DNA from: Candidatus Levyibacteriota bacterium | Lineage (GTDB): Bacteria > Patescibacteriota > Microgenomatia > Levybacterales > UBA12049 | Assembly: GCA_016199085.1 (NCBI GenBank) | Contig: JACQHJ010000001.1 | Location: 72,477 to 136,476, forward strand | Length of the DNA stretch: 64,000 nucleotides | Reading direction: 5' to 3' | Shown: one piece after another, positions 946 through 43,474 of the stretch | Numbering within the stretch: position 1 is the first letter of the stretch | How the letters are laid out: every line of letters begins with the position of its first letter | The notes under the pieces: generated by a model | Seen by the model: the letters and a program-made list of their open reading frames with translations, nothing else | Databases searched by the model: none | Told to the model about the DNA's origin: nothing | Made by a program: the position numbers and the translations under genes

Positions 946-1154
946 TTTAATTTTTATCATCTCTTGACAGGAAAACTTGACAGTAGTATACAAAGGTTGT
1001 GAAAGGGAATTCTTTAAAAAGAACATATCCACACGGTGGAGGATTATTTTGGCAAAAGGCATATAAAAGAAACGGAAAATTGGTAAAGGCTCATTTTAAA
1101 ACAAAACCGGACAACATAACCTCTAATAACAGAAAGAATATTTTGGGATATTAG

Positions 1155-2373: not shown

Positions 2374-3063
2374 TTATTGATTCATTGCATTCTGACATGC
2401 TGCTTTTGCGTCTGCGTCTGTTATTGAATCACAAAGCGATGAATCATAACCTGTTCCCTCATTGTCTTTCATTATTTTTGTCGTTTCTTCCATCATTTTC
2501 GAATAGTCTGTGAATTTAACGTTGGATGGGGGATTAAATTTGGATTGATCAGCTCCCCATGGGTTGCATTTATAATCAAGTTGCTTATTATAGTCAAAAT
2601 ATTTATTTGCCTCATTGGTCTCGGTTTTTAGATCATCTGGGGAAATAGTCATTTTTATCCCGCTTTCCATTTGATCTCCCCAAATATAATTGTCATTGCC
2701 TTTTCTAATCATACTCATATTTGTTACTTTTCCATCTACGGTGGTTTGAAAATCTCCGCGCATATTGCCTGAAGAAACATACACGGTTCCTTTTCCTGAG
2801 AATTCATTATCTGTGCCTGTCATGTCGAAGCTGCAAGTGACATTGGCCCCGCTTGTAATAAGGTTAACCAAGGAATTCATAGCTGAATTTGTGGTTTGCT
2901 CTCCAGAAGTAGTATTTGATGTTTGGTTTTGCTGGGGAGTAGTATTTTTACCAAACATTAAGTATCCGCCAAGCCCAAGCAAAAGAAGAATAATAACTGC
3001 GGCTGCGATAATTAATTGTTTTTGTTTTAACATTAAAAAAGAGTATATAACGCAAATTTTCAA
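2374..3063 (-). CDS. hypothetical secreted or membrane-anchored protein (N-terminal TM, S/T/N-rich, four Cys)
   Basis: Hydrophobic N-terminus AAAVIILLLLGLGGYLMFG followed by a polar domain; no recognisable family. Confidence 0.45.
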   Translation of the reverse strand: MKICVIYSFLMLKQKQLIIAAAVIILLLLGLGGYLMFGKNTTPQQNQTSNTTSGEQTTNSAMNSLVNLITSGANVTCSFDMTGTDNEFSGKGTVYVSSGNMRGDFQTTVDGKVTNMSMIRKGNDNYIWGDQMESGIKMTISPDDLKTETNEANKYFDYNKQLDYKCNPWGADQSKFNPPSNVKFTDYSKMMEETTKIMKDNEGTGYDSSLCDSITDADAKAACQNAMNQ

Positions 3064-3115
3064 TAGTCAATAGTAATTAAAACCCTTGACAAATACATTT
3101 AAAAAAGAGCAATAA

Positions 3116-3304
3116 TTGTATATGGCAAAGAAAGCAGCTAAAAAGACAAAATACGAAAGCTTTAAGCTCTACGGTAAATATGAGAGGGCACAGATTGCAA
3201 TTTTTACAGTAACTGACCTTTTAATAGGTGTAGTTTTGGGATACCTGCTCCAGCCATATATCGCCGCTGCTATTACAGCCTACGCTGCAAATTCCGCCTT
3301 CTAA
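3116..3304 (+). CDS. small hypothetical membrane protein (62 aa)
   Basis: Lys-rich N-terminus and one TM; a TTGACA..AATAAT-like promoter lies just upstream. Confidence 0.3.
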   Translation: MYMAKKAAKKTKYESFKLYGKYERAQIAIFTVTDLLIGVVLGYLLQPYIAAAITAYAANSAF

Positions 3305-4749
3305 ATTCTTGGGAATAGAGATTTTTGTAAGGCTATATCGGTCTTTGTAAATTGGTCGACAATTTTCTTTGCGGTTTGCGGCATAAAAGGCTCAAGTAAA
3401 ATACCAATTTCCACAATCTGATCTACAGCGTGGGCGAGAATTGCCGACAATTCTCTTCCTTTGTGATTGGTTGAGACCTTTAGAAGTTCCCAGGGTTTTT
3501 CCTCATTTATGAATTTATCCAATTTTGTAATTTTTTGAAAAACAAGGCTTAGTGCTTCATTGAACCTAAATTCATCCAATGCTTTTTTATAGTCTTCAAT
3601 AATGTCTATGAAATGGAAATTTTTCTCTCCGGCAAGTGTTTTAAATCCCGAAGTCTCGCATAGCTTACTAACTCTTGCGATTAAATTTCCAAGTCCGTTT
3701 GCCAAATCTGCGTTATAAACTTGCCTAAACTTTTCTTCTGAGAAATCTCCATCACTAAAAGGAGAAAATTTGGAAAGACAGTAATAGCGAAGAGCGTCTG
3801 CTCCGTATTTTTCTATTAAAACACTTGGGTCAATAACGTTTCCTAAACTTTTAGACATTTTCTGTCCGTTAACCGTAAAGTATTCATGGACAAAGATTTT
3901 TTTGGGTAAGAAAAGTCCGGCCGAGATTAAAAATGCAGGCCAATAAACGGCGTGGAATCTGATTATTCCTTTCCCGATAACATGAAGATCTGCTGGCCAC
4001 CATTTTTTATAAAGATTTTCATCGGATCCAAATCCAACCGCTGTTTGGTAAATGTTTAAAGCGTCAAACCAGACATAAACTTTTTGTGTCGGATCGTTAG
4101 GGACCGGAACTCCCCAGTTTTTTGCCCTTTCATTTGATCTTGAAATACTTATATCTTCAAGACCCTTTTTAACAAAGGAGAGCATTTCGTTTCTTCTAAA
4201 GTCAGGAACTATTTCAAGCTCGTTTGATTCAATTAGTTTTAAGATTTTATCAGTATAGTTTGAGAGTTTGAAAAAATAGTTTTCTTCGCTTACTTCTTCA
4301 AGTGGTTTTCCCGGGTGTTCATGGCACTCTCCGTTTTCATCAAGTTCTTCTTTGGTATAAAACTGCTCGCATCCTACGCAATAAAGACCTTTATACGATT
4401 TCTTATAAATATCTTTTTGACAAAGTTGCCAAAGTTTCTGGGAGGATTTGATGTGTTTTTCTTCGCTTCCTTTGACTATGCTGTCAAATTTAATACCAAG
4501 TTTTTCCCAAAGATCCAAAAAAAGCTTTCCGTTTTTATCAACCAGCTCCTGAACGGTTATTCTTTCTTCTTCTGCAGCCTGGACATTTTTTAAAGAGTTT
4601 TCGTCATAGCCACATGACAAAAAAACGTCTTTTCCAAGAGTTTTTTGATACCTTGCAATCGTGTCTGATTGAATAAATTCAAGCGCATGGCCCAGGTGGG
4701 GCCTAAAATTCACGTATGGTATTGCGTTTGTAATATAGTATTTGTTCAT
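3301..4749 (-). CDS. metG: methionyl-tRNA synthetase, compact form
   Basis: HIGH-type motif PHLGHALE near the N-terminus and KMSKSLGNVI; 482 aa with no C-terminal appended domain. Confidence 0.9.
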   Translation of the reverse strand: MNKYYITNAIPYVNFRPHLGHALEFIQSDTIARYQKTLGKDVFLSCGYDENSLKNVQAAEEERITVQELVDKNGKLFLDLWEKLGIKFDSIVKGSEEKHIKSSQKLWQLCQKDIYKKSYKGLYCVGCEQFYTKEELDENGECHEHPGKPLEEVSEENYFFKLSNYTDKILKLIESNELEIVPDFRRNEMLSFVKKGLEDISISRSNERAKNWGVPVPNDPTQKVYVWFDALNIYQTAVGFGSDENLYKKWWPADLHVIGKGIIRFHAVYWPAFLISAGLFLPKKIFVHEYFTVNGQKMSKSLGNVIDPSVLIEKYGADALRYYCLSKFSPFSDGDFSEEKFRQVYNADLANGLGNLIARVSKLCETSGFKTLAGEKNFHFIDIIEDYKKALDEFRFNEALSLVFQKITKLDKFINEEKPWELLKVSTNHKGRELSAILAHAVDQIVEIGILLEPFMPQTAKKIVDQFTKTDIALQKSLFPRI

Positions 4750-4788
4750 CGATTGAATTGTAACAAAGATTGCAAGCTAAGGAAAGAA

Positions 4789-5124
4789 TTAATGTTTTCT
4801 AAAAAAGAAAAGTTCAGTTGCTGCAAATAATATAAAAAGCAAAACCAGGAAGAAGGTTTGGTTAAGATTATTTAATCTAAGAATTAAATAAATCAAAGAA
4901 AAAGTAGCAAGAAGTAACCCTTGGATTTTATTTGCAAAAATAAACCAAACGGTTGTCCAAAGAAAAATAAACAAAAGTAAAAAACCAATAGGTATTGCTG
5001 TTATTTTAAGAGAGGAAAAAGAAACAGTTGTATTGGGTGAAAAGGCAAAGACAAGATAGATTAAGCAAATTAAAGAAATAACAGAAAGAACAGGAAGGAT
5101 TAAAAGTTTCTTTCTTTTTCGCAT
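4789..5124 (-). CDS. hypothetical multi-pass small membrane protein
   Basis: 111 aa, almost entirely hydrophobic helices. Confidence 0.35.
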   Translation of the reverse strand: MRKRKKLLILPVLSVISLICLIYLVFAFSPNTTVSFSSLKITAIPIGFLLLFIFLWTTVWFIFANKIQGLLLATFSLIYLILRLNNLNQTFFLVLLFILFAATELFFFRKH

Positions 5125-5227
5125 ATATAAAAGTTTAGCATAAACAAACTTCTTTCAGGCTTTGGAAGTAGGTTTTGTTAACTGTGTTATTAAATGTGCA
5201 GGAATTAATTGAGGTCCAATTTCCCTC

Positions 5228-5265
5228 TTGACAAGATTTTGGCAGTCGTGATATATTACTGCTAA
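5228..5265 (+). promoter_or_regulatory. hrcA promoter (TTGACA-18-TATATT) overlapped by a CIRCE-like inverted repeat TTGGCAGTC-N9-TACTGCTAA
   Basis: Each arm matches the CIRCE consensus TTAGCACTC-N9-GAGTGCTAA at 7 of 9 positions with a compensatory change; it sits about 75 nt upstream of the hrcA start. Confidence 0.45.
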
Positions 5266-5339
5266 CCTGGATACGACGCATTTTCAGTAAGATATATTTG
5301 TAGATCTATACGGGCGCTTATCTGGGTAAAGGATTTATT

Positions 5340-6071
5340 ATGCACGACTTAACGTCTAGACAAGTCGATATTTTAAAAAGTCTCATCGAAGAATATATAG
5401 AGACTGCGGAAGCGGTCGGCTCTGAGACTTTAGAAAAAAAGCATAATTTGTCTGCAAGCCCTGCAACGATTCGAAACGAAATGGTTCGGCTTACAGAGCT
5501 TGGGTACCTTAAAAAACCGCACATCTCGGCTGGTAGAGTTCCGACTCCCTTGGGGATGAGGTTCTACGTCAAGCAGCTGATGAAAGAAAAAGAGCTCTCG
5601 GTTGCAGAAGAAGTCTCATTAAAGGAAAAAGTTTGGGATTTAAGAGAAAAAGAAAGAGTTTTCTTAAAAGAATTAACCAAAACTTTGGCTGAGCGAACAA
5701 AAGCTTTGGCAATAACAACAACCGATGAAGGAGATCTTTTCTGTGCAGGCTATGCAAATGTTTTGGACAATCCGGAGTTTTTGGATATTGATGTAACCAA
5801 GAATTTATTATCGGCAGTTGACGAATTTGAATATTTCAAGAGCCTGTTTTCAGAACAGGAAGATGATGACGAGATCCATATACTCCTTGGAGAAGATCTT
5901 GGACCAAGATTAAACGGTCCATACGGATTTGTCTATATAAAATACCATACGCCTATGAAGTTAACAGGAAAAGTTGGCGTTTTGGGACCGGCAAGACTTA
6001 ATTATAACTTTGTTGTCCCAACTGTAAGATATTTCGGAGATTTAATAGGAGAGATAGCAAAGGGTTGGTAA
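5340..6071 (+). CDS. hrcA: heat-inducible transcription repressor HrcA
   Basis: N-terminal winged-HTH SRQVDILKSLIEEYIETAEAVGSETL and TIRNEMVRLTELGYL; gene order hrcA-grpE-dnaK. Confidence 0.9.
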   Translation: MHDLTSRQVDILKSLIEEYIETAEAVGSETLEKKHNLSASPATIRNEMVRLTELGYLKKPHISAGRVPTPLGMRFYVKQLMKEKELSVAEEVSLKEKVWDLREKERVFLKELTKTLAERTKALAITTTDEGDLFCAGYANVLDNPEFLDIDVTKNLLSAVDEFEYFKSLFSEQEDDDEIHILLGEDLGPRLNGPYGFVYIKYHTPMKLTGKVGVLGPARLNYNFVVPTVRYFGDLIGEIAKGW

Positions 6072-29974: not shown

Positions 29975-32302
29975 TTAATTAGAAGAGATATTAATAGTTA
30001 TATTATTGGGATTTTTAGGAAGCGTTGATGAGACAAAGGGCAGATTGGGTGTTACCCTTATATCAACTTCTTTAACATTTGTCAGATTTGAAAGCATGTT
30101 CTTTGTCTTCACTACATCTGTCCCTGCAATCTGTTTAATAAGGTCTTGGGTATTTATGTTTGGGAAGAGCTTTGCAGAAACCACCAAGTCTGCGGTTATA
30201 TCTTCATTTTTTTGTAATTTTATGTTTTTGGCATTAACGCTAAACTCACTTTTATCAATGGAAAAGGCAGAGTTGTCAAACATTTTCTCAGACAGTTTCT
30301 TTACGTCTTTATTGTCATATGAGAGAAAATCAAAAGAAACAGTTGCGGAAAGACTAACCTTATCTGCCTGGTCGTCCTCTTTTTTATCAAACTTTTCTTT
30401 GGTTAACGTTGTATCAACAAACTGGGGAAGAATTGTTCTTCCATCCTTTACTTTAGATGCAATGTCGCCTTTTGCTTTATCAGACAAGGTTTTAGGAAGT
30501 TCAGATCGAAGTTTTGCCAGATCATTATCTGAAACTACGGTTACATTTTTCTTTGTTCCGCCAGAGAATGCATTGTCATTTTTTCCGGCAACTGTTTTAC
30601 TTGTGCCGACTGTGAATTTGGCGCCACTTGGAAGATTTGATTCTGTTCCTATTTCCTCAGCTGTTACGTTTACGTTTGTAGTTCCGGGTTTTGTCCCTGA
30701 GAAGACGTCTCCTGAGGCAGAAGCTACTTTAATAGAAGAGTCTAAGACAAATTTAAGTCCGGTTGAAGAGGTAATTACGGTTCCTGAGTTTAAACTTACA
30801 GAGTCTGTATCGTTATTAAAGATTGTTACCGTTCCTTTGGCTTTTGTACCGATATCTTTCTTTCCGCTTGCATTAACAGTCGTTGATCCCTCTTCATCAA
30901 CTGGGATAAGTTCTGCTCCTAAGGTGTTGTCGTCAATATTGGTTTGTCCGTTTGGAGTAAAAGTTATACTTTGGGTTTTTTCATCTGTTTTTGGATCAAC
31001 GATTAACGTTACCTTGGCACTTGTTTGGAAAATGAAGGTAAAGAAGATAAAAAGAGCCAAAATTAAACCTCCAAGGGCAAAAGCAATAAATTTAATGTCT
31101 TTTACGCTTCGAACTTTAATTAGAGGAAGAATTAGAATAAAATACTTTTTAAGTAACCCCATTACGTCAATTGAGACAGTTTTAGCTTTGGTTGCAGTTT
31201 CAACCGCAAGTTCCGGTGTTCCATAGCTTTCTTCTTCAAGCTTTACGTCTTGGGGGATCTCGGCGGATCTAAATTCAAGTTCTTCTTTGGGAAGATCGGC
31301 TAGAGGTTCTTTGGCAGATGCTACCTTTGCTACAGGAGGAGCCTGCTTGACAACGTCGCCACTACTAAAGCCGAAAAACTCCAAAGACGAGTCTTTGCCC
31401 ACATAGTCTAATTTTCCCTCACTCTTTTCCTCTTCGAATGGTTTTGGCTTTGCTTCTTCCATTGATTCATCGTCGGTTTTTATCACTTCCGGCTCTTCAT
31501 CCTCTTTTTTGGCAAATTCTTTAGAAAGAGTTTGGTTATGGTCAAAGATAAGAGCCGTTCCCATCTGAGTTGCGGCACCCAGTAGCACTGCTTTTATATC
31601 TGCGTCCTGGGGAAGACTCATAATTTGGGGGATATGTAAAAAGGGAAGTGATTTACTCCACTTGTGGTTTATAAATTCCTGGGTTAGTTCGTCTTCTTCG
31701 CTATCTAAGACAATAATTCTTGCGGGCATTACTTCGGGGATTTGGAAGTGTTTTAAGACGGTATCAACTGTGTGAGTAACTGATTCGTGTATCTCGGATG
31801 ATCTTACCTCCATTATCTTTCCCGCTCTTATTAAAGAAACGGAGAGGTATTTCTTGCCAACGTCGACAAGGATGGCTGTAACCGGCGCTCCTTCATCTTT
31901 GTGGATTAGATTAACAACGCTTTCTGTAAAGACCAAAAAGCCGATTGGATCAAGGGATAATTCTTCTCCTGCTTTTTTAAGTTTCTCCAGATACTCTTTT
32001 TTAATCTTATTGTCTTCAACCCAGGATTCTTTTAAACCAAAAATAGTTTTGTGGGTTTCGATATCCTTAGGGAGTACTTCTTCGGCAGCGGTTATTGCCT
32101 TATCAAGTACGTTTAGGAATTCTTCGGTTGAGGCGTCCTCAATCGTATTGGTGAATTCTTCTTCGGAGTCGTTTAGGTATTTGATTGTGGTACCAATTTT
32201 CTCAAATACCACAGCCTTAACTTTTTCGTTTCTTAAAATAAGAGATAAGAAATATTCGGATTTTTCTTTTTTATCAAGAAAGGGCAGTGTCGAAATATTC
32301 AT
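29975..32302 (-). CDS. PilM-like actin-fold N-terminal domain fused through one TM to a large S/T/N-rich extracellular beta-rich domain
   Basis: KVKAVVFEKIG and AILVDVGKKYLSVSLIRAGKI resemble PilM/FtsA; a mid-protein TM; C-terminal half rich in T/S/N/V/K. Confidence 0.4.
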   Translation of the reverse strand: MNISTLPFLDKKEKSEYFLSLILRNEKVKAVVFEKIGTTIKYLNDSEEEFTNTIEDASTEEFLNVLDKAITAAEEVLPKDIETHKTIFGLKESWVEDNKIKKEYLEKLKKAGEELSLDPIGFLVFTESVVNLIHKDEGAPVTAILVDVGKKYLSVSLIRAGKIMEVRSSEIHESVTHTVDTVLKHFQIPEVMPARIIVLDSEEDELTQEFINHKWSKSLPFLHIPQIMSLPQDADIKAVLLGAATQMGTALIFDHNQTLSKEFAKKEDEEPEVIKTDDESMEEAKPKPFEEEKSEGKLDYVGKDSSLEFFGFSSGDVVKQAPPVAKVASAKEPLADLPKEELEFRSAEIPQDVKLEEESYGTPELAVETATKAKTVSIDVMGLLKKYFILILPLIKVRSVKDIKFIAFALGGLILALFIFFTFIFQTSAKVTLIVDPKTDEKTQSITFTPNGQTNIDDNTLGAELIPVDEEGSTTVNASGKKDIGTKAKGTVTIFNNDTDSVSLNSGTVITSSTGLKFVLDSSIKVASASGDVFSGTKPGTTNVNVTAEEIGTESNLPSGAKFTVGTSKTVAGKNDNAFSGGTKKNVTVVSDNDLAKLRSELPKTLSDKAKGDIASKVKDGRTILPQFVDTTLTKEKFDKKEDDQADKVSLSATVSFDFLSYDNKDVKKLSEKMFDNSAFSIDKSEFSVNAKNIKLQKNEDITADLVVSAKLFPNINTQDLIKQIAGTDVVKTKNMLSNLTNVKEVDIRVTPNLPFVSSTLPKNPNNITINISSN

Positions 32303-32310
32303 ATATACTT

Positions 32311-34107
32311 TTAATCTACTTTGGCATAGATTCTTTTATATCCTTTACCTAAATTCTCTTGCTTTATTATTCTAAAACTTTTAATCGCTCCTGTAAACTC
32401 AACGTGCGGCCCTCCGCAAAATTCCCTGGAATAATCTCCTATAAAATACACCTTTACATTATCAGAATACTTTTCATCAAACAGTCCTATGGCTCCAAGC
32501 TCCTTAGCCTTGGCAAGAGGCATAATTTCAAAGTGGACAGGGAGGTTGTCTTTAATTTTACCTCTTACTATTTCTTCAACCTTTCGAAGTTCTCCTTCGG
32601 AGAGCATTTTGTCGTGGTTAAAGTCAAAGCGGAGACGCTCTGAGGTTATATTACTTCCAGATTGGTGGAGTTTATCTCCAAAGATGTCTCTTAATGCCTG
32701 GTGTAAAAGATGTGTTGCAGTGTGTCCTTTGATTGTTAGCTCGGAAGTATCAGCAAGGCCACCTTTAAACATGCCTGAAGAGGCTGTTTTGGATAATTCT
32801 TTGTGTTTTTCCATTGAATCAGCAAATTCTTGATCGTTAAAGGTGTAACCCATGCTTTTTATCTGTGTTGGGGAAAGTCCATATGATGTATAGAGATTAA
32901 AGGCAGTTTCTGCAGAAATGATCTTAAATCCTTTAAGCTCATCTCCTACTTCGATTTCATCTTTAACATTAATCTCTAAAAATTTCTTTGCCTCACTCAG
33001 AGCCTTTTTATATTTTTGGCCTTCTTCTAATATGGAATTTTTAATGAGTTCAAAGTTTGCTTTAAGGCTTTCGTCTGTTTTAGAGCATTCTTCTACAATT
33101 GCAGTGAGAATAGAGGAGAGTTGATCTTGGTTTACCTCTCCCAGGTTATCGATGGCTCTTCTTATCAGTCTTCGAAGGATATATCCTCTTTCTTTATTAG
33201 ACGGTTCTACTTTTGCATCAAGAAGGTAAGCTGAGGCACGAAGGTGGTCTGCAATGATTCTAAACTCTCTTTGGTTTTCTTTGTAGGATTTAGAAGTTGC
33301 GGATTCAATAGCGTCAATGATTGGTTTAAAAAGAGAAGTTTGGAAAATATCAGACTTATTTTCTACTGCAGCCAATAATCTTTCAACTCCTCCTCCAAAA
33401 TCAACGTTTTTGTTAGGTAATTCTTTAAACCCGTCTTCTGTTTTTATGTATTGCATAAAGACAGAATTGGCAATTTCTGAAAATTTACCACATTCACATT
33501 TAACAGGATTATCGCCTTCACATTTATCAGTATGTTCAATATCGTCGAATCTAAAATATACTTCTGTATCCGGTCCTCCAGGTTCACCGATTGGCATTTT
33601 GTCAGGGGTTCCACTTCTTGACCACCAGTTAGTATCATCTGCAAAAATTCTATCTTCAAGTCCTTCTTTTACTAGTACATCTTTCCAGATCTTTTCTGCT
33701 TCAGTGTCATAGCCAATATTTTCATATCCATTAAAAACAGATATATATAGTTTTTCTTTAGGTAACCTTAGCTCTTTGGTTAGAAATTCCCAAAGCCAGG
33801 GGATTTCTTCGGATTTGAAATAATCTCCCAAGGACCAGTTGCCTAGCATTCTGAAAAATGTTGTATGCCTATTATCTCCAACTTCTTCAATATCAACTGC
33901 TCTGAAGCAATTTTGTACGTCAACAAGCCTGTTTCCAGAAGGGTGAGGTTCGCCTAAAAGATATGGAACCAGTGGCTGCATGCCGGAAGAGGTGAAAAGA
34001 GTTGTTGGATCATTCTCTGGAACCAAAGGAGAGTTGGTAATTTGTTTATGTTTTCTTTTTTCAAAAAAAGAAATATAAACGTCTATTATTTGCTTAGTAC
34101 TTAACAT
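32311..34107 (-). CDS. alaS: alanyl-tRNA synthetase, compact (no C-Ala domain)
   Basis: FTSSGMQP and FFRMLGNWSLGDYFK class II motifs; editing-domain motifs HTATHLLHQAL and CGGPHV. Confidence 0.85.
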   Translation of the reverse strand: MLSTKQIIDVYISFFEKRKHKQITNSPLVPENDPTTLFTSSGMQPLVPYLLGEPHPSGNRLVDVQNCFRAVDIEEVGDNRHTTFFRMLGNWSLGDYFKSEEIPWLWEFLTKELRLPKEKLYISVFNGYENIGYDTEAEKIWKDVLVKEGLEDRIFADDTNWWSRSGTPDKMPIGEPGGPDTEVYFRFDDIEHTDKCEGDNPVKCECGKFSEIANSVFMQYIKTEDGFKELPNKNVDFGGGVERLLAAVENKSDIFQTSLFKPIIDAIESATSKSYKENQREFRIIADHLRASAYLLDAKVEPSNKERGYILRRLIRRAIDNLGEVNQDQLSSILTAIVEECSKTDESLKANFELIKNSILEEGQKYKKALSEAKKFLEINVKDEIEVGDELKGFKIISAETAFNLYTSYGLSPTQIKSMGYTFNDQEFADSMEKHKELSKTASSGMFKGGLADTSELTIKGHTATHLLHQALRDIFGDKLHQSGSNITSERLRFDFNHDKMLSEGELRKVEEIVRGKIKDNLPVHFEIMPLAKAKELGAIGLFDEKYSDNVKVYFIGDYSREFCGGPHVEFTGAIKSFRIIKQENLGKGYKRIYAKVD

Positions 34108-34222: not shown

Positions 34223-37200
34223 ATGAATTTAACTAATTTTGTTAAGTATTGCCTTGGATATGTTAAGTTAACGAAACAAAGATCCTTTTTCTCCCAACAA
34301 AAAAATAGCCTAGAGCTTGATAAGGACCAACTAAATCTTGAAGGTTTGCTAAATGGAGAAGCAGATGGTCAATTAGCGGAGATAATAAATTTAAAGACGT
34401 TTTATTCAAATGATCCTAAAAATATAAGTGGGGAAGAAGAAGAGCAGTATCTGAAAGAAAAAAATTTAGCCAACAAAATTCAAGAAATTTACAATAAGTT
34501 TAGAAACGATCAGTTCACCAAAGAAATCGCAATAAACTTTGGATATTTTGAAATAGAATTAACCTTGGATAATGTTAACGAAGAAGATCAAGATGTGGAG
34601 ATTCAAGAAAAAGAAGTCAAGATAAGTAAATATCCTCTTTTTTCTCTTCCAGTAAAAATCGAAACACAAATAGAAAATGGAATCTACAAGTATTATCTTT
34701 ATTATTCGGACCAAGAGATTAAAGTAAATCTTAATGTATTAGAGAAATTATTTGATGAAAATAATAAAGCAGATACTTTTTATCAATTGATAGAAAAGAT
34801 TGGGGAGGAAGAGATCCAGGGCAAATTTTCTTTACCCATAATTGAGCATGACATACTTTATGAGACTTGGGATAAAGTAAGAGCATTATTAAAACTCACA
34901 GATGCAAAATTTGAGGATGAATCCTTCAATTTAGAAGAAAGTACTCTGTCTTTAAATTCAAAAAGTAATTATTTTTTAGCTGAAGATCTTTTAAAATTGT
35001 CTAAAATAGAAGCAGAAGAACTTAAGGGAACAGCGCTAGAGAGTTGGGTAAGTGATGCGGAAACAAATCTGGAAAGCGAAGTACCCAGTGAGGAGCAATT
35101 ATATTTCCCATTTCCATACGATAGATTTCAGCTTAAGTCACTTTCATTATTGGGTAATCAAGCATCCATAATTCAGGGACCTCCGGGAACAGGAAAATCA
35201 GAAACTATTGCTAATATCTTGTGTCATTTGGCTGCTAATGGAAAAAAAGTTTTGTTTATAAGTCAAAAATCCCAAGCATTGAAAGTGGTTAAAGATAAAT
35301 TAAAAAAAACTGGAATTAATTATATGTTTGGTTATGTTCCCAATCCAGCCTCCGCAAGCGTTACCGAAGAAGATGAAACGGATGGAATTGCCCCACAGCT
35401 TACTGCCTTAAATACTTTTATACAGAAGATGACTTATAAATTAAACTATTGGAATGAGAGAAAGGAGACATTAGGGACAATCTCTCAAAGAATAGGAGGA
35501 TTAAAAAAAAGTTTTAACTCAGTTATAGAAGATGAAAGAAATTATTTTACTCTTCATGAAGAACTAAATGAGCTCTTAAGATATAAAAGTGAAATCGGTA
35601 ATAATAAGGACTTTTTTGAAAATGCTGATTCTGAAAAATGGGAGAAGATTAAAGAATTGATTAATCAATTCCAGGCAGTTGATCTTGAATTATTAAAATA
35701 TAAAAAAAATAATAACGATTTCTCAAATAGATTCCCAATAGAACTTTTCCAAAACGAACAATATTCAATTAAGATTAATGAAATATTGAGTAATGTTTCT
35801 AAAACAGGTTATGATAGAAATTCAAAATTTTTTAGATGGTTGAATAATACTAAAAGAAACATAATATTAAGAAATGTAAGATCCGCCCTTCCCTCCGAAG
35901 TTATTAATGAAATCGACAAAATACTAAATAGTGAAATAAGTAAACATGAATCCAGTAGGCAATTAACTGAGTTAAATGAATTTATCATATTTAGAGAAAA
36001 TACTGTCTTAAAGCAGAAGATTAATGAAGAAATTAAAAAAGGTCTAGAGGTAATCGGTCTAAACATAGACCAATATAAAAATATAGAAAAAATAATAAAA
36101 CAGACTGGCATTGATTTCAAAATCTACAAGGATAAGATTGAAAAGATTAACGAGCTAGAAATACAATTGAAAGATTTAGCAAAAAATTATGATCTTTCAG
36201 AATTGAGAAAAAGCATTAACTCTTCTAAAATTAGTAGATCAAATGTTATAAGCTCCTATATTCAAAATATAATTAACAAAAGAATTATGGACAAGTGGAT
36301 GCTTCAAAATATAAAAAGAGTAGTTCTTAGATTAGCAAAAGCATTTGGTAAGTCGAAGAAAGCATACAAAACCTTCGATGAGCTTAGGAGAGATCCGGAA
36401 AATTTCAATTCTATTATTGACTTAGTGCCTGTATGGATTATGGAGCTTGACGATGCGAGTAGAATTATTCCATTAATGCCCAGAATGTTTGATTATGCAA
36501 TTCTAGACGAAGCTTCTCAATGCAATGTAGCCTATACGCTTCCAGTAATGTTCAGAGCTAAAAAAATTGTCTTTGTGGGTGATCCAGAGCAAATGAGAGA
36601 TAGCACGATTCGATTTAAAGCAAACAGGGATTTTGATGAGCTTGCTAAAAAATATAGTATTCCAGGTGATTTGCAAATAAAATCCACTGGAAATGCAGTC
36701 CAGTCAGTACTAGACATAGCCTTACTTAGAGGATTTAATTCTAATAATCTTCAGTATCATTACAGGTCACCAAAGGAACTTATCGGATTTAGTAATCAAT
36801 ATTTTTACAAACCCAAGGGTAAAGAATTAATCGCATTGAACAACAACTATCTTACATATAGAGATACCAACAGGATAATGTTAGTTCACGAAGTTGAGAA
36901 TAAAAAAAATAATAACGAAGAGATAGCAGATAATATTAATATTGCTGAAGCTAAAGCTATATTAAGTTTTTTTAAGGAATTAAGAGAAAATCCTAATACT
37001 AAAGATAAATCTATAGGTATTTTAACCTTCTTTAATGGACAAGCAACTTATATAAGAGAATTATTTGAGCAAGAAGGATTTAAGGAAGAAGACGATAACT
37101 ACATAGTTAGTATTATTGAAGGTATTCAAGGAGACGAAAAAGATATTATTTTGTATTCTTTTGTAATTAGAGAACTCGATCAAAAAAGAAAATATGGAGC

Positions 37201-38026
37201 ATTAACTGGAGAAGGAGGAGATATTTTAGGTGATATAAATAAGGGAAGGGTAAATGTTGCTTTTACTCGAGCTAGATTACAGGTTCATTGCTTTGTTAGT
37301 ATGGACCCACTTCCTGATAGAATTTGGATTAAAAAATTTATAGACTATATTAAAGAAAATGGAGAAATTAATTTCTATTCGAGCGAATTAAATGATTTTG
37401 ATTCTTTTTTTGAAAAAGAATTTTACGCATATGTAAAAGACTCACTCTCAAAGGAGTATCTTATCCAAAACCAGGTAGAAAGTTGTGGTTTTAAGATTGA
37501 TTTTGTAATCTCCTATAAGCAAACAGGTAAAAGACTCGCAATTGAATGTGATGGCCCAACACATTTCGAAAATGAAGTTGATCAAGAGCTCGGTATTTAT
37601 GTTGAAAGCGATGAAGAAAGACAAACTGTTCTGGAGGCGGCAGGTTGGAGTTTCTATAGAATTAAATATTCAGACTGGATAGATAAGAACAAAGTTAAGG
37701 ATGTATTTATAAATGAAATTAAAAATTATTTCAAAATTTCTTCTGAGAGAGAAACTATTATAGCAAAACCCAAAATAAGTAAGTATGAAGGTATAAAGAT
37801 AGATTTCGATTTAAATCCATATTTGAATAACAAAGAAGTTTGGTTCCTGTTGTCGGTTTGGGGTAAAAAGAGTGGTCAATTTATTGGATTTCAAAATAAA
37901 TTTTGTTATTCTCTAGGTAGATATCTTTCTAGGAAACCTGAGTTAACAGTTAAACAAGCAAACTATGGAAGATATCTTCTTAATACAGCAATTAAAAAAG
38001 GATTTTCCCTAGATGGAATTAAATGA
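34223..38026 (+). CDS. DUF4011 + SF1 (Upf1-like) helicase + C-terminal DUF559 / Vsr-like PD-(D/E)xK nuclease fusion
   Basis: Walker A GPPGTGKSE; LDEASQ; VGDPEQM; NYRSPKELIGFSNQYFY; VAFTRAR; C-terminal FKIDFVISYK...LAIECDGPTHF...AGWSFYRI. Confidence 0.8.
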   Translation: MNLTNFVKYCLGYVKLTKQRSFFSQQKNSLELDKDQLNLEGLLNGEADGQLAEIINLKTFYSNDPKNISGEEEEQYLKEKNLANKIQEIYNKFRNDQFTKEIAINFGYFEIELTLDNVNEEDQDVEIQEKEVKISKYPLFSLPVKIETQIENGIYKYYLYYSDQEIKVNLNVLEKLFDENNKADTFYQLIEKIGEEEIQGKFSLPIIEHDILYETWDKVRALLKLTDAKFEDESFNLEESTLSLNSKSNYFLAEDLLKLSKIEAEELKGTALESWVSDAETNLESEVPSEEQLYFPFPYDRFQLKSLSLLGNQASIIQGPPGTGKSETIANILCHLAANGKKVLFISQKSQALKVVKDKLKKTGINYMFGYVPNPASASVTEEDETDGIAPQLTALNTFIQKMTYKLNYWNERKETLGTISQRIGGLKKSFNSVIEDERNYFTLHEELNELLRYKSEIGNNKDFFENADSEKWEKIKELINQFQAVDLELLKYKKNNNDFSNRFPIELFQNEQYSIKINEILSNVSKTGYDRNSKFFRWLNNTKRNIILRNVRSALPSEVINEIDKILNSEISKHESSRQLTELNEFIIFRENTVLKQKINEEIKKGLEVIGLNIDQYKNIEKIIKQTGIDFKIYKDKIEKINELEIQLKDLAKNYDLSELRKSINSSKISRSNVISSYIQNIINKRIMDKWMLQNIKRVVLRLAKAFGKSKKAYKTFDELRRDPENFNSIIDLVPVWIMELDDASRIIPLMPRMFDYAILDEASQCNVAYTLPVMFRAKKIVFVGDPEQMRDSTIRFKANRDFDELAKKYSIPGDLQIKSTGNAVQSVLDIALLRGFNSNNLQYHYRSPKELIGFSNQYFYKPKGKELIALNNNYLTYRDTNRIMLVHEVENKKNNNEEIADNINIAEAKAILSFFKELRENPNTKDKSIGILTFFNGQATYIRELFEQEGFKEEDDNYIVSIIEGIQGDEKDIILYSFVIRELDQKRKYGALTGEGGDILGDINKGRVNVAFTRARLQVHCFVSMDPLPDRIWIKKFIDYIKENGEINFYSSELNDFDSFFEKEFYAYVKDSLSKEYLIQNQVESCGFKIDFVISYKQTGKRLAIECDGPTHFENEVDQELGIYVESDEERQTVLEAAGWSFYRIKYSDWIDKNKVKDVFINEIKNYFKISSERETIIAKPKISKYEGIKIDFDLNPYLNNKEVWFLLSVWGKKSGQFIGFQNKFCYSLGRYLSRKPELTVKQANYGRYLLNTAIKKGFSLDGIK

Positions 38027-38110
38027 AGTTAGCATTATGTTGCCATTTTATTATTTCTTCTTACCTTTGTTTTAATCCTCTACGCCTTTCTCATAGCATA
38101 AATAAACCGA

Positions 38111-38788
38111 TTACGAATGGCGGATGCCATACCAGCACATACACCAAGCGTAGTCTTTTTGTTCAATCCTGCTTGTGCAATCCTTGATAGGAAGTATTGG
38201 ATTATTCTTCAATTCATCAGCTGTATATTTTTTGCCCTGATACTTACTGCATTCTTCACAGCAATCCTGCGTTTCAACTTCAAAATAAGTGGGTAAAATA
38301 CCACCGATAGTGCCTAATTGAATTTCATAGTTATGAACGGATTTTAAGTAACTATAAGGGTCATGTCCTCTACGCAATTGATAAAGTGCCTGTGCAAAAG
38401 CTATCATTTTTGCATGGTGTAAAATACTTGATCTCTTGTCATAATCATTCTCAATTTCAGGCGGATGTCCCACCAATCTATTAGAGACTCCCCATACTAT
38501 GTCGTAGGATTTTGGTTTTGTTCCCCATTTTTTGGATAATTCAGCCTCAATTTTTAAATAATCATTAACAGTAGCTCCTAAATATTGGAGTTCTTTAAAA
38601 AAATCTGCCGCTAGGGCATCCTCCTGCGTTAAAATATCTGAATTAAATATGGTTTGTGTGGTTCTAATGAAACATTCTTCACCACATTTTTCGCATTTAG
38701 TCTTTCTCTTAGGTAGTTTCTCAAAAATAGCTCCGCAATATGGGCATTTATTGCGGTTTCTATCATCTTTTTTTTCGAATAGTCCCAT
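38111..38788 (-). CDS. hypothetical protein with an N-terminal Zn-ribbon (CPYCG..CEKCG) and a Cys-rich C-terminus
   Basis: CxxC pairs at both ends; no recognisable family. Confidence 0.4.
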   Translation of the reverse strand: MGLFEKKDDRNRNKCPYCGAIFEKLPKRKTKCEKCGEECFIRTTQTIFNSDILTQEDALAADFFKELQYLGATVNDYLKIEAELSKKWGTKPKSYDIVWGVSNRLVGHPPEIENDYDKRSSILHHAKMIAFAQALYQLRRGHDPYSYLKSVHNYEIQLGTIGGILPTYFEVETQDCCEECSKYQGKKYTADELKNNPILPIKDCTSRIEQKDYAWCMCWYGIRHS

Positions 38789-38848
38789 AGAGTCGATTAT
38801 ATATCATATTTGTGTATAATAAATTCTAATATCGCCCATTTAGGAGAA

Positions 38849-39412
38849 TTAAAACTCTGCATTTACTTCTAGCATTTCCATTCCTTCCTTATCTTCCAAT
38901 GTCAGTGTCTGTCCGCAGCTATCAAAATTTCCAGTTGCAATAACATATTGATCTAAATACTTACTAAAATCTAGATTTCTAACATACGGAAGCCTAACTA
39001 CATCTCCATCATTTTTAATAAGAACTGTTCTTTTATAAGTTTGTCTTGGTGCAAAATAATCTAGGAATGGATCAAGAAGAGGAATCTGCGAAGGAATATT
39101 GTCTTCTATATTTAATACTCTTATTTCTCCAATCTGGGATTGGGATCCTTTATCACAAAGTATTTTTCCTCCTCCGAATATTCCAAATACTGATAAAGCA
39201 AGGAATACTCCCATAATTCCAAGACTTCCTTTTAAAGTAAAGGAAAATGCTTTTTGTTTCTTTATATCTTCCAAAAGCTCAACGATCCTATATAAGGGGT
39301 TTCCTACATGGATATCTATTAAATCATCCTTTGTTTTTGAATAATGCGTATTTTCCTTAAAAAACTTTGAGATAGGATCTTTTGCCATCAATATAATTGT
39401 TACGCCTAACAA
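38849..39412 (-). CDS. hypothetical single-pass membrane protein
   Basis: Central TM GIMGVFLALSVFGIFGGG. Confidence 0.4.
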   Translation of the reverse strand: MLGVTIILMAKDPISKFFKENTHYSKTKDDLIDIHVGNPLYRIVELLEDIKKQKAFSFTLKGSLGIMGVFLALSVFGIFGGGKILCDKGSQSQIGEIRVLNIEDNIPSQIPLLDPFLDYFAPRQTYKRTVLIKNDGDVVRLPYVRNLDFSKYLDQYVIATGNFDSCGQTLTLEDKEGMEMLEVNAEF

Positions 39413-39720
39413 TAATAAATTGCAAGTAGAAATGTAACTTAAATTACCACAATTAAAATATGACTCTTATGTAGTTTGGGCAGGTAAAAATAGTAAAAGA
39501 GACTTATAGGAAATTGCTATAGTTAGGTTAACTTTTGTTTTAGTTTGAAATAGTTATTTGAGGCTATAAAGTATTCAAATATTCGTTTGACAAACCAAGC
39601 GACTTGGATAATTATACATATGTATAAGTAATTTCTTCATATCTTGAAGAAATTTACACAGGGTGTTATAATTGCAGTCCTTTGTACTGCCCCTAAGTAC
39701 ATTAAAATTGAATTTATCAC

Positions 39721-39794
39721 AAAGCCGACGAGATTCGAACTCGTAACCTTCCCGTTAGTAGCAGGTTGCTCTGTCCAGTTGAGCTACGGCTTTG
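39721..39794 (-). tRNA. tRNA gene with a short variable loop, no encoded CCA, and a hand-folded anticodon loop CU-ACU-AA
   Basis: Minus-strand AAAGCCG-UA-GCUC-AACUGGACA-GAGC-A-ACCUG-CUACUAA-CGGGA-AGGUU-ACGAG-UUCGAAU-CUCGU-CGGCUUU-G. Acceptor, D and T arms are canonical; the anticodon stem has an A-A mismatch. Confidence 0.6.
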
Positions 39795-40457
39795 ATAGTT
39801 AAAACTTACTAAAGTGGCCCGTCTAATTAACTAATTAGCCCATACGATTAGAAGTCGTTAGGAACTAAAAGACCATTAGGTAGAGTTTTCCAGAGCTTCC
39901 CATCTACCAAGATGTACGGAAGCTCTGTTGGTATTTCTACCCCGAACTTATCGTCCGTATTCATGATTAACCACCTCTATCTGGCATCGGTTCAAAGAAC
40001 TTAAGCCTGCCCGACTTCTCTTTGTCGTGCATACCAGAGAATAGTCTTTCGACGGACCACTTATAATAACTTTTAAAGTACTTTCCCTTTTTTTACTATT
40101 TAATAATTATTTTTACTTCATGTTAAATAGCAAAAAATAGCTCGACTTGTAAAACCTACAAGGCGAGCGTGTTCCAAGTCGCACCAATGATCAATTGTTT
40201 TAGAAACTTACCTCACCTTGAGGCTTCGTAGGGTCTCATGTCGTTAACTCGACCCTAGCCCTACTAGCCCGTTTCTAAGGCGTTCTACTAGAGCCGAGTA
40301 AACGATATGAAACTCAACTATATATGGTATATCATTTAGCACTCGAAAAATCAACTGCCAACTTACAGTTTCGTGTCTGCCATTACTTGCTCAAACTACA
40401 TAAGTGCCTAAAATATCTCTTGACTTTAAAATTTAAAAATTTTATAGTCCACCTTAT

Positions 40458-40784
40458 ATGGAAATTGAGCCTCCAATACAGCAACTTTTAGATTTTTGTA
40501 GACAAGGAAGAACTTTGGTAACAGGCTTTACAAATAAAACATACAATTTGCCAACCGGCGAACAAAAAACAAGCTACTCTTTTGTTTTAGAAAGACGTAA
40601 CTTAAGAAGTCAGCTCCCGACAACCTTAGATGTATTCAATCAAGCAAGAGTTGTTGTTTCTCACTGCGCCTGGAAACTAAGCGAAACTCCACAAGGAAGA
40701 AGATTGGTAGAAAATATTACTGCGATTGGTAGAGTCAGACCTAACCCAGATCAACCAACAACCATTTTTGGTCTTAGACGCTAG
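40458..40784 (+). CDS. hypothetical protein (108 aa)
   Basis: ORF only; preceded by TTGACT-17-TTATAG. Confidence 0.3.
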   Translation: MEIEPPIQQLLDFCRQGRTLVTGFTNKTYNLPTGEQKTSYSFVLERRNLRSQLPTTLDVFNQARVVVSHCAWKLSETPQGRRLVENITAIGRVRPNPDQPTTIFGLRR

Positions 40785-40804
40785 CCTTTTTATCTAACCA
40801 TCCC

Positions 40805-41143
40805 TTGTTGTATAATTCAAAAATGATTCCGCGTACAGAATTACAACTTGAACATGTAGGTATGGAAGTAGATACATATCAGACGATTGCTGTTTTTAAG
40901 TCTGATTGGGCGAGAAATCCTCAGGATGTAATAACGGCAAAAGACAAATTAAAAAGGGATTTTCATCCCTCAACCTTAAGAATAAGGCAAGATGCCGAAG
41001 TTACAGAAACACCAGATGAGATAGTTTTCCATCCCATACTTGTTTGGACGGCAACCTGGATACATGGGTATACTCCCATAGTGCCTAATCTTGTAGATCT
41101 GCATGAAGATTATCTGTTTCATTACAACCTTCCTGCGTTATAG
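40805..41143 (+). CDS. hypothetical protein (112 aa)
   Basis: ORF only. Confidence 0.3.
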   Translation: MLYNSKMIPRTELQLEHVGMEVDTYQTIAVFKSDWARNPQDVITAKDKLKRDFHPSTLRIRQDAEVTETPDEIVFHPILVWTATWIHGYTPIVPNLVDLHEDYLFHYNLPAL

Positions 41144-41147
41144 ATAT

Positions 41148-41900
41148 ATGTCAAGAAAACTTGAAGCAAGAGAAAACGCCAAAAAAGGAATCAGAGACCA
41201 GGACCCCCGCGTAGAAGTCCCACGCTTTATCCCTCCAATGTTGGTTGGGGAATTAGGAACCAGGAATCTGTCTTTGCTTGACAGGCAGAAACGCTTCTAT
41301 GAGGTTAAGGCAGACGGGTACAGAACCATAGTAACCATTAGGCATGGCGAGGATGGCCCAATAGTCAGGCTATTATCAAAAAACGGAAAAGATATAACCC
41401 AAAGATTTCCTTTGGTTACAACTCAACTTGCAGACATAAAAGATGAAGTCGTATTAGACGGAGAAATGGAAGCTTTAAGACCAAGGCCAGATGCACTGGG
41501 AATAACAACCCAAGAAGAAAACGCCCTTTTTGAGATGTATGGAGGTTTGGTTCCTGACAGGAATTTACTTTCTCTTTCAGCCATTCATTTAAGACACGTA
41601 GATTACAGACTTAGGTTATTTGATATCCTGTTTTTAAACGGAAGGCATTTGACTACAAAGCCTCTTTCGGAAAGAAAGCTTTATTTAAATGAAGTTGTTC
41701 CGGATGAGTTAAGCGCAGTTTCGACTGTTCCATATTTTGAATATACCTCCGATGCAGCACTGCTTAGGCTTTTAAAAGCAGTTGATAAATTCGGTCTTGA
41801 AGGAATGGTAGCTAAAAGAACAGACAGCGTTTATACGCCGGGTAGAAGAAGCGACAGATGGCTAAAGATAAAAAGAACACCGCAACAACCAATCCACTAG
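41148..41900 (+). CDS. ATP-dependent DNA ligase, nucleotidyltransferase domain only (no OB domain)
   Basis: PPML start, motif I YEVKADGYR, motif III DGEME, motif IV EGMVAK and motif V GRRSDRWLKIK; the ORF ends right after motif V. Confidence 0.7.
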   Translation: MSRKLEARENAKKGIRDQDPRVEVPRFIPPMLVGELGTRNLSLLDRQKRFYEVKADGYRTIVTIRHGEDGPIVRLLSKNGKDITQRFPLVTTQLADIKDEVVLDGEMEALRPRPDALGITTQEENALFEMYGGLVPDRNLLSLSAIHLRHVDYRLRLFDILFLNGRHLTTKPLSERKLYLNEVVPDELSAVSTVPYFEYTSDAALLRLLKAVDKFGLEGMVAKRTDSVYTPGRRSDRWLKIKRTPQQPIH

Positions 41901-41954
41901 CTCTTGCCCTATAGTTTGCCTTTTAGAAACATTTTCTGTATAATCCCATCTGGC

Positions 41955-43451
41955 ATGGCAGTAAGAAATGAAGCAATAGAGCAATCCGCACAAGCAATCT
42001 CTTTTCCTTTCGCACACGGTACAAGGCCTGAAACAGCTCGTATGTTAATTGACGCACGGGAATCAGGAGTCTTAGAAGGGCTAAGACCGGCAGTACGCGA
42101 ACTAATTGATAGATATTACGGAACAGATGCAAGCCTAAAAGATCTTGGCGTTGCTGCAGGAATGAGCACAAGTCACATCGGCGTAAGACTTAGACAGGGA
42201 CTGGAAGAAATAAGAGAACTTTTGGGAGACGAAGTTACGGAAAAATACCCAAAAGAAGCAACTCTACTTAAGTTAGCCATGCCAAGACCACCAAGAGATT
42301 TAGATCAGGTTCAAGCGCCTTTTCCGATTTCTGTAAGACTTGACACACCTCAAAAAGAAACAAGACACAAAGAGGCAATGCAAAGAGTTTTTGAAAGACC
42401 CCCTGTCTATTTTAAGTCTTCAGAATATTTGCTCAGAAGATATGTTCCTCCTAAAATGCCTGACCAAGAACCCCATGGAGAATTAATGCCTATGACCCAA
42501 AGGGTATTAACTTTAATAGGAAGGGGACTTACCTACGCTGAAATTGCTCCGATAGTCGGAATGTCAACGAAAATGGTTGGGTTCGTAATAGGAAGAAAAG
42601 TTATCCGTCCGGTCATGCAAGTTTCTAACCCGCATGAAGCATTGGTAGTAAGTTTAACAAAGGGTCTTGTTAGTCTTCGCGAAGCCTCGAAAGGGTTAAA
42701 TTTATCAGACGAAAATGTTGACAGTCTATCAATTCGGGCAGTAGAAGTATTAATTGCTGATACAGTTGATAATCTTGGAATGACCAGAAAGCAGATAGGA
42801 GAAAGAATAGGTAATACAGAAAGTGCAATCGAAGACCTCAGGACAAGAATATATCAAAAACTTGGAGTATTAAGTAAAGCTCAGGCCACTGTATTTGTTA
42901 TGGCATATGTTAAGAAAGCTATGTATGAGAGAAGATATCCTATAAAAGATACGATTGAAGGTGGGGGATCTTTTGAGGATTATCATGCACCTGAAGCTCC
43001 TGATATTCAATACACTATTGATTATTTAAAAAATGTTGGAATTAGTGAGCGTGATAAGCAGGCATTTCTTATTCATTTCCTTTGGTCTGAAGGTAGGGGT
43101 ACATACGCTTTGATTAGAAGACATTTACGGTTAGAAGACAGACCAATAATAGAAGTTTTGCTTAATAGAGTAATCGATGCAGAAGTGGATCCGAGATATT
43201 CAATTCCTGTTTTGGATATCTATCACAATATTTTTGCTCCCATCGAACTTGCAAGAGTTATTTTTTTCAACAATAAAGGAGAAAGGACTTATGAAAGATT
43301 TAGGGCGTTGGTAGATATCTGTAGGAAAAGAATAAGAGAAGAGCATATAACAGGCTATAAGCCTTCTACGAGAACAGAGCTTAATATTGAGGCACAAAGA
43401 CTTCTTGATCAGAGAAAAGCGGCAAGGCAGGAGGTTGTAGTTTTTGACTAA
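41955..43451 (+). CDS. regulator with three tandem sigma70-r4 / LuxR-type HTH units and an unknown C-terminal domain
   Basis: LKDLGVAAGMSTSHIGVRLRQGLEEIR, LTYAEIAPIVGMSTKMVGFVIGRKV and RKQIGERIGNTESAIEDLRTRIYQKLGV. Confidence 0.5.
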   Translation: MAVRNEAIEQSAQAISFPFAHGTRPETARMLIDARESGVLEGLRPAVRELIDRYYGTDASLKDLGVAAGMSTSHIGVRLRQGLEEIRELLGDEVTEKYPKEATLLKLAMPRPPRDLDQVQAPFPISVRLDTPQKETRHKEAMQRVFERPPVYFKSSEYLLRRYVPPKMPDQEPHGELMPMTQRVLTLIGRGLTYAEIAPIVGMSTKMVGFVIGRKVIRPVMQVSNPHEALVVSLTKGLVSLREASKGLNLSDENVDSLSIRAVEVLIADTVDNLGMTRKQIGERIGNTESAIEDLRTRIYQKLGVLSKAQATVFVMAYVKKAMYERRYPIKDTIEGGGSFEDYHAPEAPDIQYTIDYLKNVGISERDKQAFLIHFLWSEGRGTYALIRRHLRLEDRPIIEVLLNRVIDAEVDPRYSIPVLDIYHNIFAPIELARVIFFNNKGERTYERFRALVDICRKRIREEHITGYKPSTRTELNIEAQRLLDQRKAARQEVVVFD

Positions 43452-43474
43452 ACCTCAAGTGATATAATTAAAAA

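Follow-up and report, generated by a model that had tools for sequence, protein, structure and literature searches.

A compact helicase-nuclease related to Hhe, with a probable role in defense, beside alaS in a Levybacteria chromosome

Among the described anti-phage systems, Hhe is a single-gene helicase-nuclease system of the class SF1_Upf1 (PMC10925250), and its apparent triggers are DNA-metabolism genes of phage T7 (10.1101/2024.10.10.617714). Two further named protein models, ProA and the PADLOC candidate PDC-S37, come close to the protein considered here, and no paper describing either of them was found in our literature search. We analyzed a stretch of 64,000 nucleotides (nt) from a Candidatus Levyibacteriota genome (contig JACQHJ010000001.1, positions 72,477 to 136,476; hereafter the window), which carries at 34223..38026 (+) a gene for a helicase-nuclease of 1267 amino acids (aa), encoded in a single open reading frame (ORF) of the ORF list and 100% identical to NCBI HY344_00565, a hypothetical protein of a Candidatus Levybacteria bacterium metagenome-assembled genome. 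In all likelihood the protein is a compact, horizontally spreading form of Hhe-type helicase-nuclease, seen almost only in bacteria of the candidate phyla radiation (CPR, or Patescibacteria). We think it fairly probable that the gene encodes a stand-alone, one-protein Hhe-type defense enzyme against phages or mobile elements, situated in a hotspot between alaS and rpoBC.

An initial annotation, made from the letters and the ORF list, had described a single polypeptide of 1267 aa with a complete Upf1-like superfamily 1 (SF1) helicase core and a C-terminal Vsr/DUF559-type nuclease, and this description was confirmed: the ORF is as described, AAA_11 (1.2e-12) and AAA_12 (1.5e-23) pass their Pfam thresholds, every motif that had been named is present, and the nuclease is recognized above cut-off by the Pfam restriction-endonuclease family MTES_1575 (8.9e-16, residues 1063-1157), with DUF559 just below its own (20.0 bits vs. 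a cut-off of 20.6). The first part of helicase domain 1A (35135..35347, +; Pfam AAA_11, AAA_19, AAA_30) holds the Walker A motif GPPGTGKS (aa 319-326, nt 35177-35200), which is invariant in the family alignment. Domain 1A is then split, between motifs Ia and II, by an all-helical insertion of ~355 aa (aa ~380-735; 35360..36427, +), whose helices run almost unbroken from residue 389 to 732 according to DSSP on an AlphaFold2 (AF2) model, and in which no Pfam family scores above its cut-off. The rest of domain 1A and domain 2A follow (aa 736-1025; 36428..37297, +; Pfam AAA_12, Foldseek, and PDB sequence matches), with LDEASQ (761-766), VGDPEQ (785-790), YHYRS (845-849), FSN (856-858), and VAFTRAR (1012-1018) read from the translation and a QGDEKD motif within the same residues. 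The top PDB matches of the AF2 model in Foldseek were Senataxin, Aquarius, IGHMBP2, Upf1, ZNFX1, and Dna2, with which the PDB sequence search agrees, and both sequence and model assign the motor to the Upf1-like SF1B group. The full-length AF2 model has a moderate pLDDT of 66.8, so no conclusions on domain packing were drawn from it. The C-terminal Vsr-like PD-(D/E)XK nuclease of the MTES_1575/DUF559 type (aa 1055-1160; 37385..37702, +) shows the motifs KIDFV (1091-1095) and ECDGPTH (1108-1114), and D1093, E1108, D1110, and H1114 are invariant across the family alignment. Beyond it the chain ends in an extension (aa 1161-1267; 37703..38023, +), delimited from an alignment of C-termini, with a conserved core of ~85 aa that is found only in five Levybacteria-clade proteins; no Pfam family scored above its cut-off in residues 1150-1267.

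The initial annotation had also placed a DUF4011-like region at the N-terminus, and here the outcome is divided. The N-terminal alpha/beta domain (aa ~30-260; 34310..35002, +) has no Pfam model: DUF4011 (PF13195) gave no match in the 1267-aa protein, even at E ≤ 10 on residues 1-310. An N-terminal profile searched against 1.84 billion cluster representatives returned only 68 clusters, apparently all of the same helicase-nuclease family; PF13195 was found in none of the seven most distant full-length members that were scanned, and profile-profile comparison of the N-terminus with an alignment of PF13195-bearing proteins was not significant (E = 0.086). BLASTP against the NCBI-annotated Hhe of a Klebsiella plasmid was collinear, with residues 138-489 corresponding to Hhe 264-607 and residues 730-1177 to Hhe 1347-1783, and the same collinearity was seen against a Rhizobium DUF3320 protein. 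When the N-terminus without Walker A was compared with the Hhe N-terminus, BLASTP gave 40% identity over 42 aa (E = 1.4e-6) and hmmsearch gave 2.3e-5, both in a three-sequence search space, and the match was centered on the motif PLFSLPVKIE...YYLYYSDQEIKVNLNVLEKL. Because these N-terminal comparisons match Hhe collinearly, we call the domain divergent DUF4011-like, on targeted evidence only; the likeness to the DUF4011 region of Hhe is thus retained, but not as a Pfam DUF4011 match.

Searches with models of named defense proteins gave PADLOC matches to PDC-S37 (4e-70, 235 bits), Hhe (1.7e-35), and MkoA/MkoC (4e-23 and 4e-22), these PADLOC models having no curated cut-off here, and NCBIfam matches to ProA (NF058533; 241 bits vs. 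a cut-off of 1500) and Hhe (NF042953; 157 bits vs. a cut-off of 2000). The best stretch of the PDC-S37 match pairs residues 755-1158 with model positions 937-1329 of 1550, the ProA model is matched at positions 1279-1696 of 1903, and the Hhe model match is limited to residues ~729-1157 plus short stretches. Because the matches are partial in this way, the protein is best described, as far as profile scores go, as related to the Hhe and ProA families and yet not a member of either by their own cut-offs.

The position of the gene on the chromosome provides the second line of evidence. The window is bacterial chromosome, with rpoB, rpoC, rpsL, rpsG, fusA, pnp, rnj (RNase J), ftsK, yceG, and a sortase gene, and all of these but the last also rule out a megaphage origin, the case for which consisted of a weak Baseplate_J match, alaS, and a tRNA. 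From species-representative genomes we retrieved the surroundings of alaS homologues, 68 loci in all, and mapped the window proteins onto them (retrieved loci carry L numbers). The alaS gene (32311..34107, -; Pfam) is the conserved flank of a variable slot: on one side its synteny with the genes for a 775-aa protein and a sortase, pynp, and yceG is kept in about 20 Levybacteria-like loci, and ftsK is kept as well in the closest siblings, which are L009, L010, and L023 (alaS 81-84% identity, ftsK 90-94%). The opposite side of alaS, where the helicase gene lies in the window, differs in every close relative. No helicase is present within 10 kb on that side in L009 and L010, and L023 starts inside alaS, which leaves this side uncovered. 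The L009 slot holds a helix-turn-helix (HTH) protein, RadC, a type I methyltransferase with its specificity subunit, a HEPN protein, and both Septu components (PtuA 9e-165, PtuB 3e-65). The L010 slot holds a LexA-like protein, a type I methyltransferase (3e-187) with its specificity subunit, and PD-T7-4 (5e-89), together with a DpnI-like protein and an SNase. Since L009 has Septu and type I restriction-modification (RM), and L010 type I RM and PD-T7-4, in the place of the helicase, the alaS-proximal slot, between alaS and the rpoBC region, is a bona fide chromosomal defense hotspot. In these siblings the defense content spans L009 2851-8420, where the HEPN gene is embedded in the type I RM system, and L010 4355-9590, and slot genes without a Pfam match are found at L009 5802-6269 and L010 3197-3865. 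The gap between alaS and the rpoB region is 15.7 kb in the window; among distant relatives with alaS near the rpoB region, the rpoB-side gene o112b is ~0.4 kb off in L014, and rpoB is ~3.6-3.7 kb off in L013 and L015.

The helicase gene occurs at the same position and in the same orientation in the more distant L001 (alaS 67% identity), followed there by genes for a Cas4-like nuclease and an SngA-like TerB_N protein. Conservation of the block in syntenic position had been named in the initial annotation as the pattern that would speak against its reading, and it is found in part: the helicase is by alaS in the distant L001 but not there in closer relatives. The defense-type reading that it had proposed gains from the PDC-S37, Hhe, and ProA matches in PADLOC and NCBIfam as well as from the systems in the sibling slots.

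Beyond this slot, over 1200 clusters (formed at 90% identity) were matched with E ≤ 1e-5, and the named sources are all Patescibacteria lineages; the mean column identity is 63% over 36 family members. Proteins from Gottesmanbacteria, Buchananbacteria, Magasanikbacteria, Paceibacterota, and Moraniibacteriota share 66-80% mutual identity. The Gottesmanbacteria protein is closer to that of Buchananbacteria (72% identity) than to the Levybacteria proteins of its own class (54%). Because the helicase identities defy taxonomy in this way while alaS reaches only 42-47% identity across the same CPR classes, the pattern reads as a signature of horizontal spread within the CPR. The gene stands in unrelated contexts in L002, L003, and L005-L008. 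We took a census of neighbors at 87 helicase loci, with fetched flanks of at most 7-10 kb. A large serine recombinase is present in the flanks of 17 loci, a Cas4-like PDDEXK_1 or DUF2779 nuclease is nearby in 21 (immediately downstream in 13/71), and a Fic gene is nearby in 8; of the 59 loci evaluable for it, 5 have a small same-strand HTH gene directly upstream. On the downstream side 71 loci were evaluable, 62 of them with a next gene within 500 nt, and these next genes fall into 41 different clusters. No obligatory partner gene was found among the 87 loci, and the idea of one was rejected on this census.

The Cas4-like/DUF2779 companion is found in L001, L003/L004, L006, L007, L077, and 15 further loci of L080-L159, usually as the next gene on the same strand, sometimes fused, sometimes with an RNase_H_2 domain; it is absent in the window and may mark an optional two-gene variant of the system. 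L077, a Microgenomates contig, encodes at 692-5458 a canonical 1588-aa DUF4011-AAA_11-AAA_12-MTES_1575-DUF3320 protein, with a serine recombinase gene, genes of the PDDEXK_1 and DUF2779 types, a homologue of a Zn-ribbon protein of the window (see below), and Replic_Relax/TraG-like conjugation genes as neighbors. Because the long form lies here beside recombinase and conjugation genes, long and compact forms both circulate on CPR mobile elements.

Such contexts could also mean that the protein is cargo serving a mobile element itself, in replication, transfer, or counter-defense, and that the window copy is the remnant of a decayed element. The serine recombinases in 17/87 flanks, the Prim-Pol, Replic_Relax, and TraG-like genes of some loci, and the high identity across CPR classes, which implies mobility, would all fit, as would the variability of the adjacent segment 39413-43474 with its tRNA, ATP-dependent ligase, and sigma-like protein. 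Still, we regard this explanation as unlikely. The window block has no recombinase or other mobility gene, no relatives were found in IMG/VR viral contigs, GenBank phages (INPHARED) yielded only one weak match, and the closest named relatives are annotated as defense proteins, the plasmid matches (all <30% identity) being annotated as Hhe or DUF3320 proteins. Defense genes, moreover, commonly ride mobile elements too, so the context does not discriminate between the two.

A number of observations weigh against a defense enzyme. The ProA and Hhe scores are far under the curated equivalog cut-offs, and apart from the Walker A segment the defense models match no more than the C-terminal half (motif II, domain 2A, and the nuclease). 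How Hhe itself works is unresolved (10.1101/2024.10.10.617714), and a defense role is something that we infer from homology (Hhe, ProA, and PDC-S37) and hotspot context only. Siblings were viewed only 10 kb around alaS, and the helicase may sit elsewhere in their genomes. Furthermore, the helicase is 83% identical between the window and L001, against 79-80% for rpoB, 78% for rpoC, and 67% for alaS, and identity at four-fold sites is near saturation everywhere (0.48 for the helicase, 0.41-0.43 for rpoB/rpoC), which gives no signal of a recent window-L001 transfer in any gene tested. Purifying selection on the helicase is as strong as that on RNA polymerase; such conservation is atypical for fast-turnover defense genes and is compatible with long vertical residence.

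The strength of this selection is what one would expect of a housekeeping CPR genome-maintenance helicase-nuclease, a Dna2- or AddAB-like enzyme of end processing or repair that merely lies beside a variable region. The 63% mean column identity across 36 members, the Cas4/AddB-like PDDEXK_1 or DUF2779 nucleases near 21/87 loci, and the presence of Dna2 among the structural matches also agree with it, and a Pseudomonas aeruginosa DUF4011 gene is indeed a core gene that merely flanks a defense hotspot, cDHS1 (PMC10250203). A housekeeping gene would, however, be difficult to reconcile with the syntenic slots of L009 and L010, which hold defense systems in place of the helicase, with the unrelated contexts of six further loci, with neighbors that are highly variable across the census, with serine recombinases near 20% of loci, or with identities as incongruent with taxonomy as those of the Gottesmanbacteria protein (72% to Buchananbacteria, 54% to Levybacteria). 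We therefore give this explanation a low probability, about that of cargo serving a mobile element.

If the protein is a defense enzyme of the Hhe type, as we favor, it would act alone, with no obligatory partner, given that no conserved partner was seen. By analogy with its family, the SF1B motor would load on single-stranded nucleic acid arising from the replication or entry of foreign DNA and would move 5'->3' on ATP, as family membership and the intact motifs suggest. The N-terminal DUF4011-like domain and the helical insert may serve as a sensor, or may gate or regulate the enzyme, a role proposed from their conservation and position only. The Vsr-type nuclease, with its invariant D1093, E1108, D1110, and H1114, would then cut the DNA of either the invader or the infected cell.

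The helicase gene is followed, in convergent orientation on its 3' side, by two further genes, as the initial annotation had noted. One encodes a 225-aa Zn-ribbon protein (38111..38788, -) with the motifs CPYC/CEKC/CEEC, and the other a 187-aa single-pass membrane protein (38849..39412, -) with a hydrophobic helix at residues 64-82; neither had a match in Pfam, PADLOC, NCBIfam, or PHROGs. A tRNA lies beyond them (39720-39793, -), its 3' end facing the helicase block. The initial annotation had suggested that the helicase gene and these two protein genes form one module, integrated at the tRNA 3' end. A site-specifically integrated three-gene island would account for the adjacency of the genes, the facing tRNA 3' end, the lower GC of the helicase gene (0.30 vs. 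about 0.37 in the rest of the window), and the Zn-ribbon homologue that lies 2.5 kb from the canonical DUF4011 helicase-nuclease in L077. The remaining evidence makes it very improbable. Nothing of ≥14 nt in 39641-39800 occurs a second time in the window, and no repeat lies near 34.1 kb; the longest word shared between the tRNA region and the window is 12 nt, no tRNA-derived repeat family was found, and no integrase or recombinase is encoded between 34108 and 39718. No tRNA is present at the alaS locus in any of nine related loci (L001, L002, L009-L011, L013-L015, and L029), so the tRNA is itself variable cargo rather than a conserved attachment site. The membrane protein belongs to the lineage-conserved flank: L010, with no helicase near alaS, encodes a homologue of 86% identity adjoining a nucleoside hydrolase gene. 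Integration at the tRNA site was rejected on these grounds. The low GC is a family trait: the deficit is mostly at codon positions 1 and 2 and therefore reflects amino-acid composition, and homologues are below their flanks in GC at 7/8 loci, which together rule out low GC as proof of recent import. The Zn-ribbon family, finally, is tiny, with only 13 homologue clusters, and tblastn and neighbor clustering found a homologue in 0/87 helicase loci. Of the four places examined (the window and three other loci), two are near a helicase-MTES_1575 gene, namely the window and L077, and the other two contexts are without a helicase. With so few clusters and such mixed contexts the Zn-ribbon protein was ruled out as a partner, and we treat its gene as an unrelated orphan of variable regions that is not a conserved partner of the helicase. 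What had been proposed as a three-gene module at an integration site is thus rejected in both respects.

The tRNA belongs to a second variable segment (39413-43474), which is absent from L010 and holds, besides the tRNA and a structured region, two small ORFs of 108 and 112 aa. Two larger genes there encode an ATP-dependent DNA ligase of 265 aa, consisting of the adenylation domain only, and a sigma-like protein of 515 aa in which three HTH regions are of the sigma70_r4/LuxR type. No other tRNA occurs in the window; this one is of class I, 74-76 nt long, with a 5-nt variable loop and the anticodon ACU; ARAGORN calls it Ser, but it is without the long variable arm of Ser tRNAs and its CCA is not encoded, and we regard it as variable cargo and not as a housekeeping tRNA. 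To our knowledge, the anticodon ACU is almost unheard of in tRNAs. Directly upstream and in the same orientation, the region 39800-40320 (-), within the ORF-free stretch 39795-40457, has a very stable fold (-178.4 kcal/mol, z = -8.8; plus strand z = -6.95). It had no Rfam match at E ≤ 10, searches of roughly 160 retrieved loci and of viral contigs turned up no homologue, and it may represent an undescribed large structured RNA. The tRNA and the structured region lie between the arms of a 22-nt inverted repeat (39466-39487 / 40383-40404; 91% complementary, 895 nt apart), and the 8-nt sequence TAAAATAT is found 4 nt outside each arm; the repeat may delimit a small non-autonomous element or may have arisen by chance in AT-rich DNA.

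On the other side of the helicase gene, the alaS product is short, at 598 aa, and does not extend past the tRNA_SAD domain. The 775-aa protein (29975-32302, -) is encoded directly downstream of it and before the sortase gene, with synteny kept across Levybacteria. It evolves fast (75-79% identity in the closest siblings, 25-53% in more distant relatives) and has only the weak Baseplate_J-like match. Farther away, a SAM-I/IV riboswitch at 2266-2365 (-) scores 55.6 bits, above the gathering score, upstream of a 364-aa ORF (1155-2249, -).

CPR bacteria are episymbionts with tiny genomes that reportedly carry few of the known defense systems. If the protein is indeed a defense enzyme, a single-gene helicase-nuclease that circulates horizontally would go some way toward explaining their resistance to phages and plasmids. 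With two-thirds of the size of Hhe and very strong conservation, it would also be a convenient minimal model for the Hhe-type mechanism, in particular for what the DUF4011-like domain senses and how the SF1B motor gates the Vsr-type nuclease, and the alaS-side hotspot in Levybacteria could be mined for further systems. A bolder proposal, which we consider rather improbable, is that the compact (about 1150-1450 aa), almost CPR-only family, with an N-terminal sensor domain of its own (no Pfam model, no solved structural relative) and moving between CPR classes on serine-recombinase elements at 66-80% identity, constitutes a distinct and dominant single-gene immune system of Patescibacteria with an optional Cas4-like/DUF2779 two-gene variant, and that, separately, the tRNA(ACU) and the ~520-nt RNA candidate form an undescribed RNA element.

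Several known systems can be compared with this locus. Upf1, IGHMBP2, Senataxin/Sen1, Aquarius, ZNFX1, and Dna2 share the fold and motifs of the helicase core, so that the likeness concerns the motor only, and in Dna2 a nuclease is coupled to the SF1B motor as well; they differ in having no Vsr-type C-terminal nuclease, no DUF4011-like N-terminus, and other insertions. Mokosh (MkoA/MkoC) has the Upf1-like helicase module in common with the present protein, and its effector domains and architecture are absent here. The P. aeruginosa DUF4011 gene resembles the window gene in being large, of the DUF4011 helicase type, and placed at the margin of a chromosomal defense hotspot (PMC10250203), but it is present in every isolate and serves there as the marker of the hotspot, whereas the closest siblings of the window lack the gene described here in the slot. 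ProA ("anti-phage protein ProA") and PDC-S37 are the best-scoring named models and cover residues ~731-1159, although only about one third of the 1550-1903 model positions are matched. Hhe (HheA; PADLOC PDLC02194) differs in length (~1800-1900 aa vs. 1267 aa), in sequence (~25-27% identity, with the present protein found in CPR bacteria), in its N-terminal domain, which in the present protein is not recognized by Pfam DUF4011, and at its C-terminus: DUF3320, present in the canonical long forms L077 and L161, has no Pfam match in the 1267-aa protein, and the clade-specific extension stands in its place. The two are nevertheless alike as one-gene systems, Hhe being a DUF4011-helicase-nuclease anti-phage protein, both combine an Upf1-like SF1 helicase (AAA_11/AAA_12) with a C-terminal MTES_1575/DUF559 nuclease, and their parts follow one another collinearly, the stretch before Walker A included.

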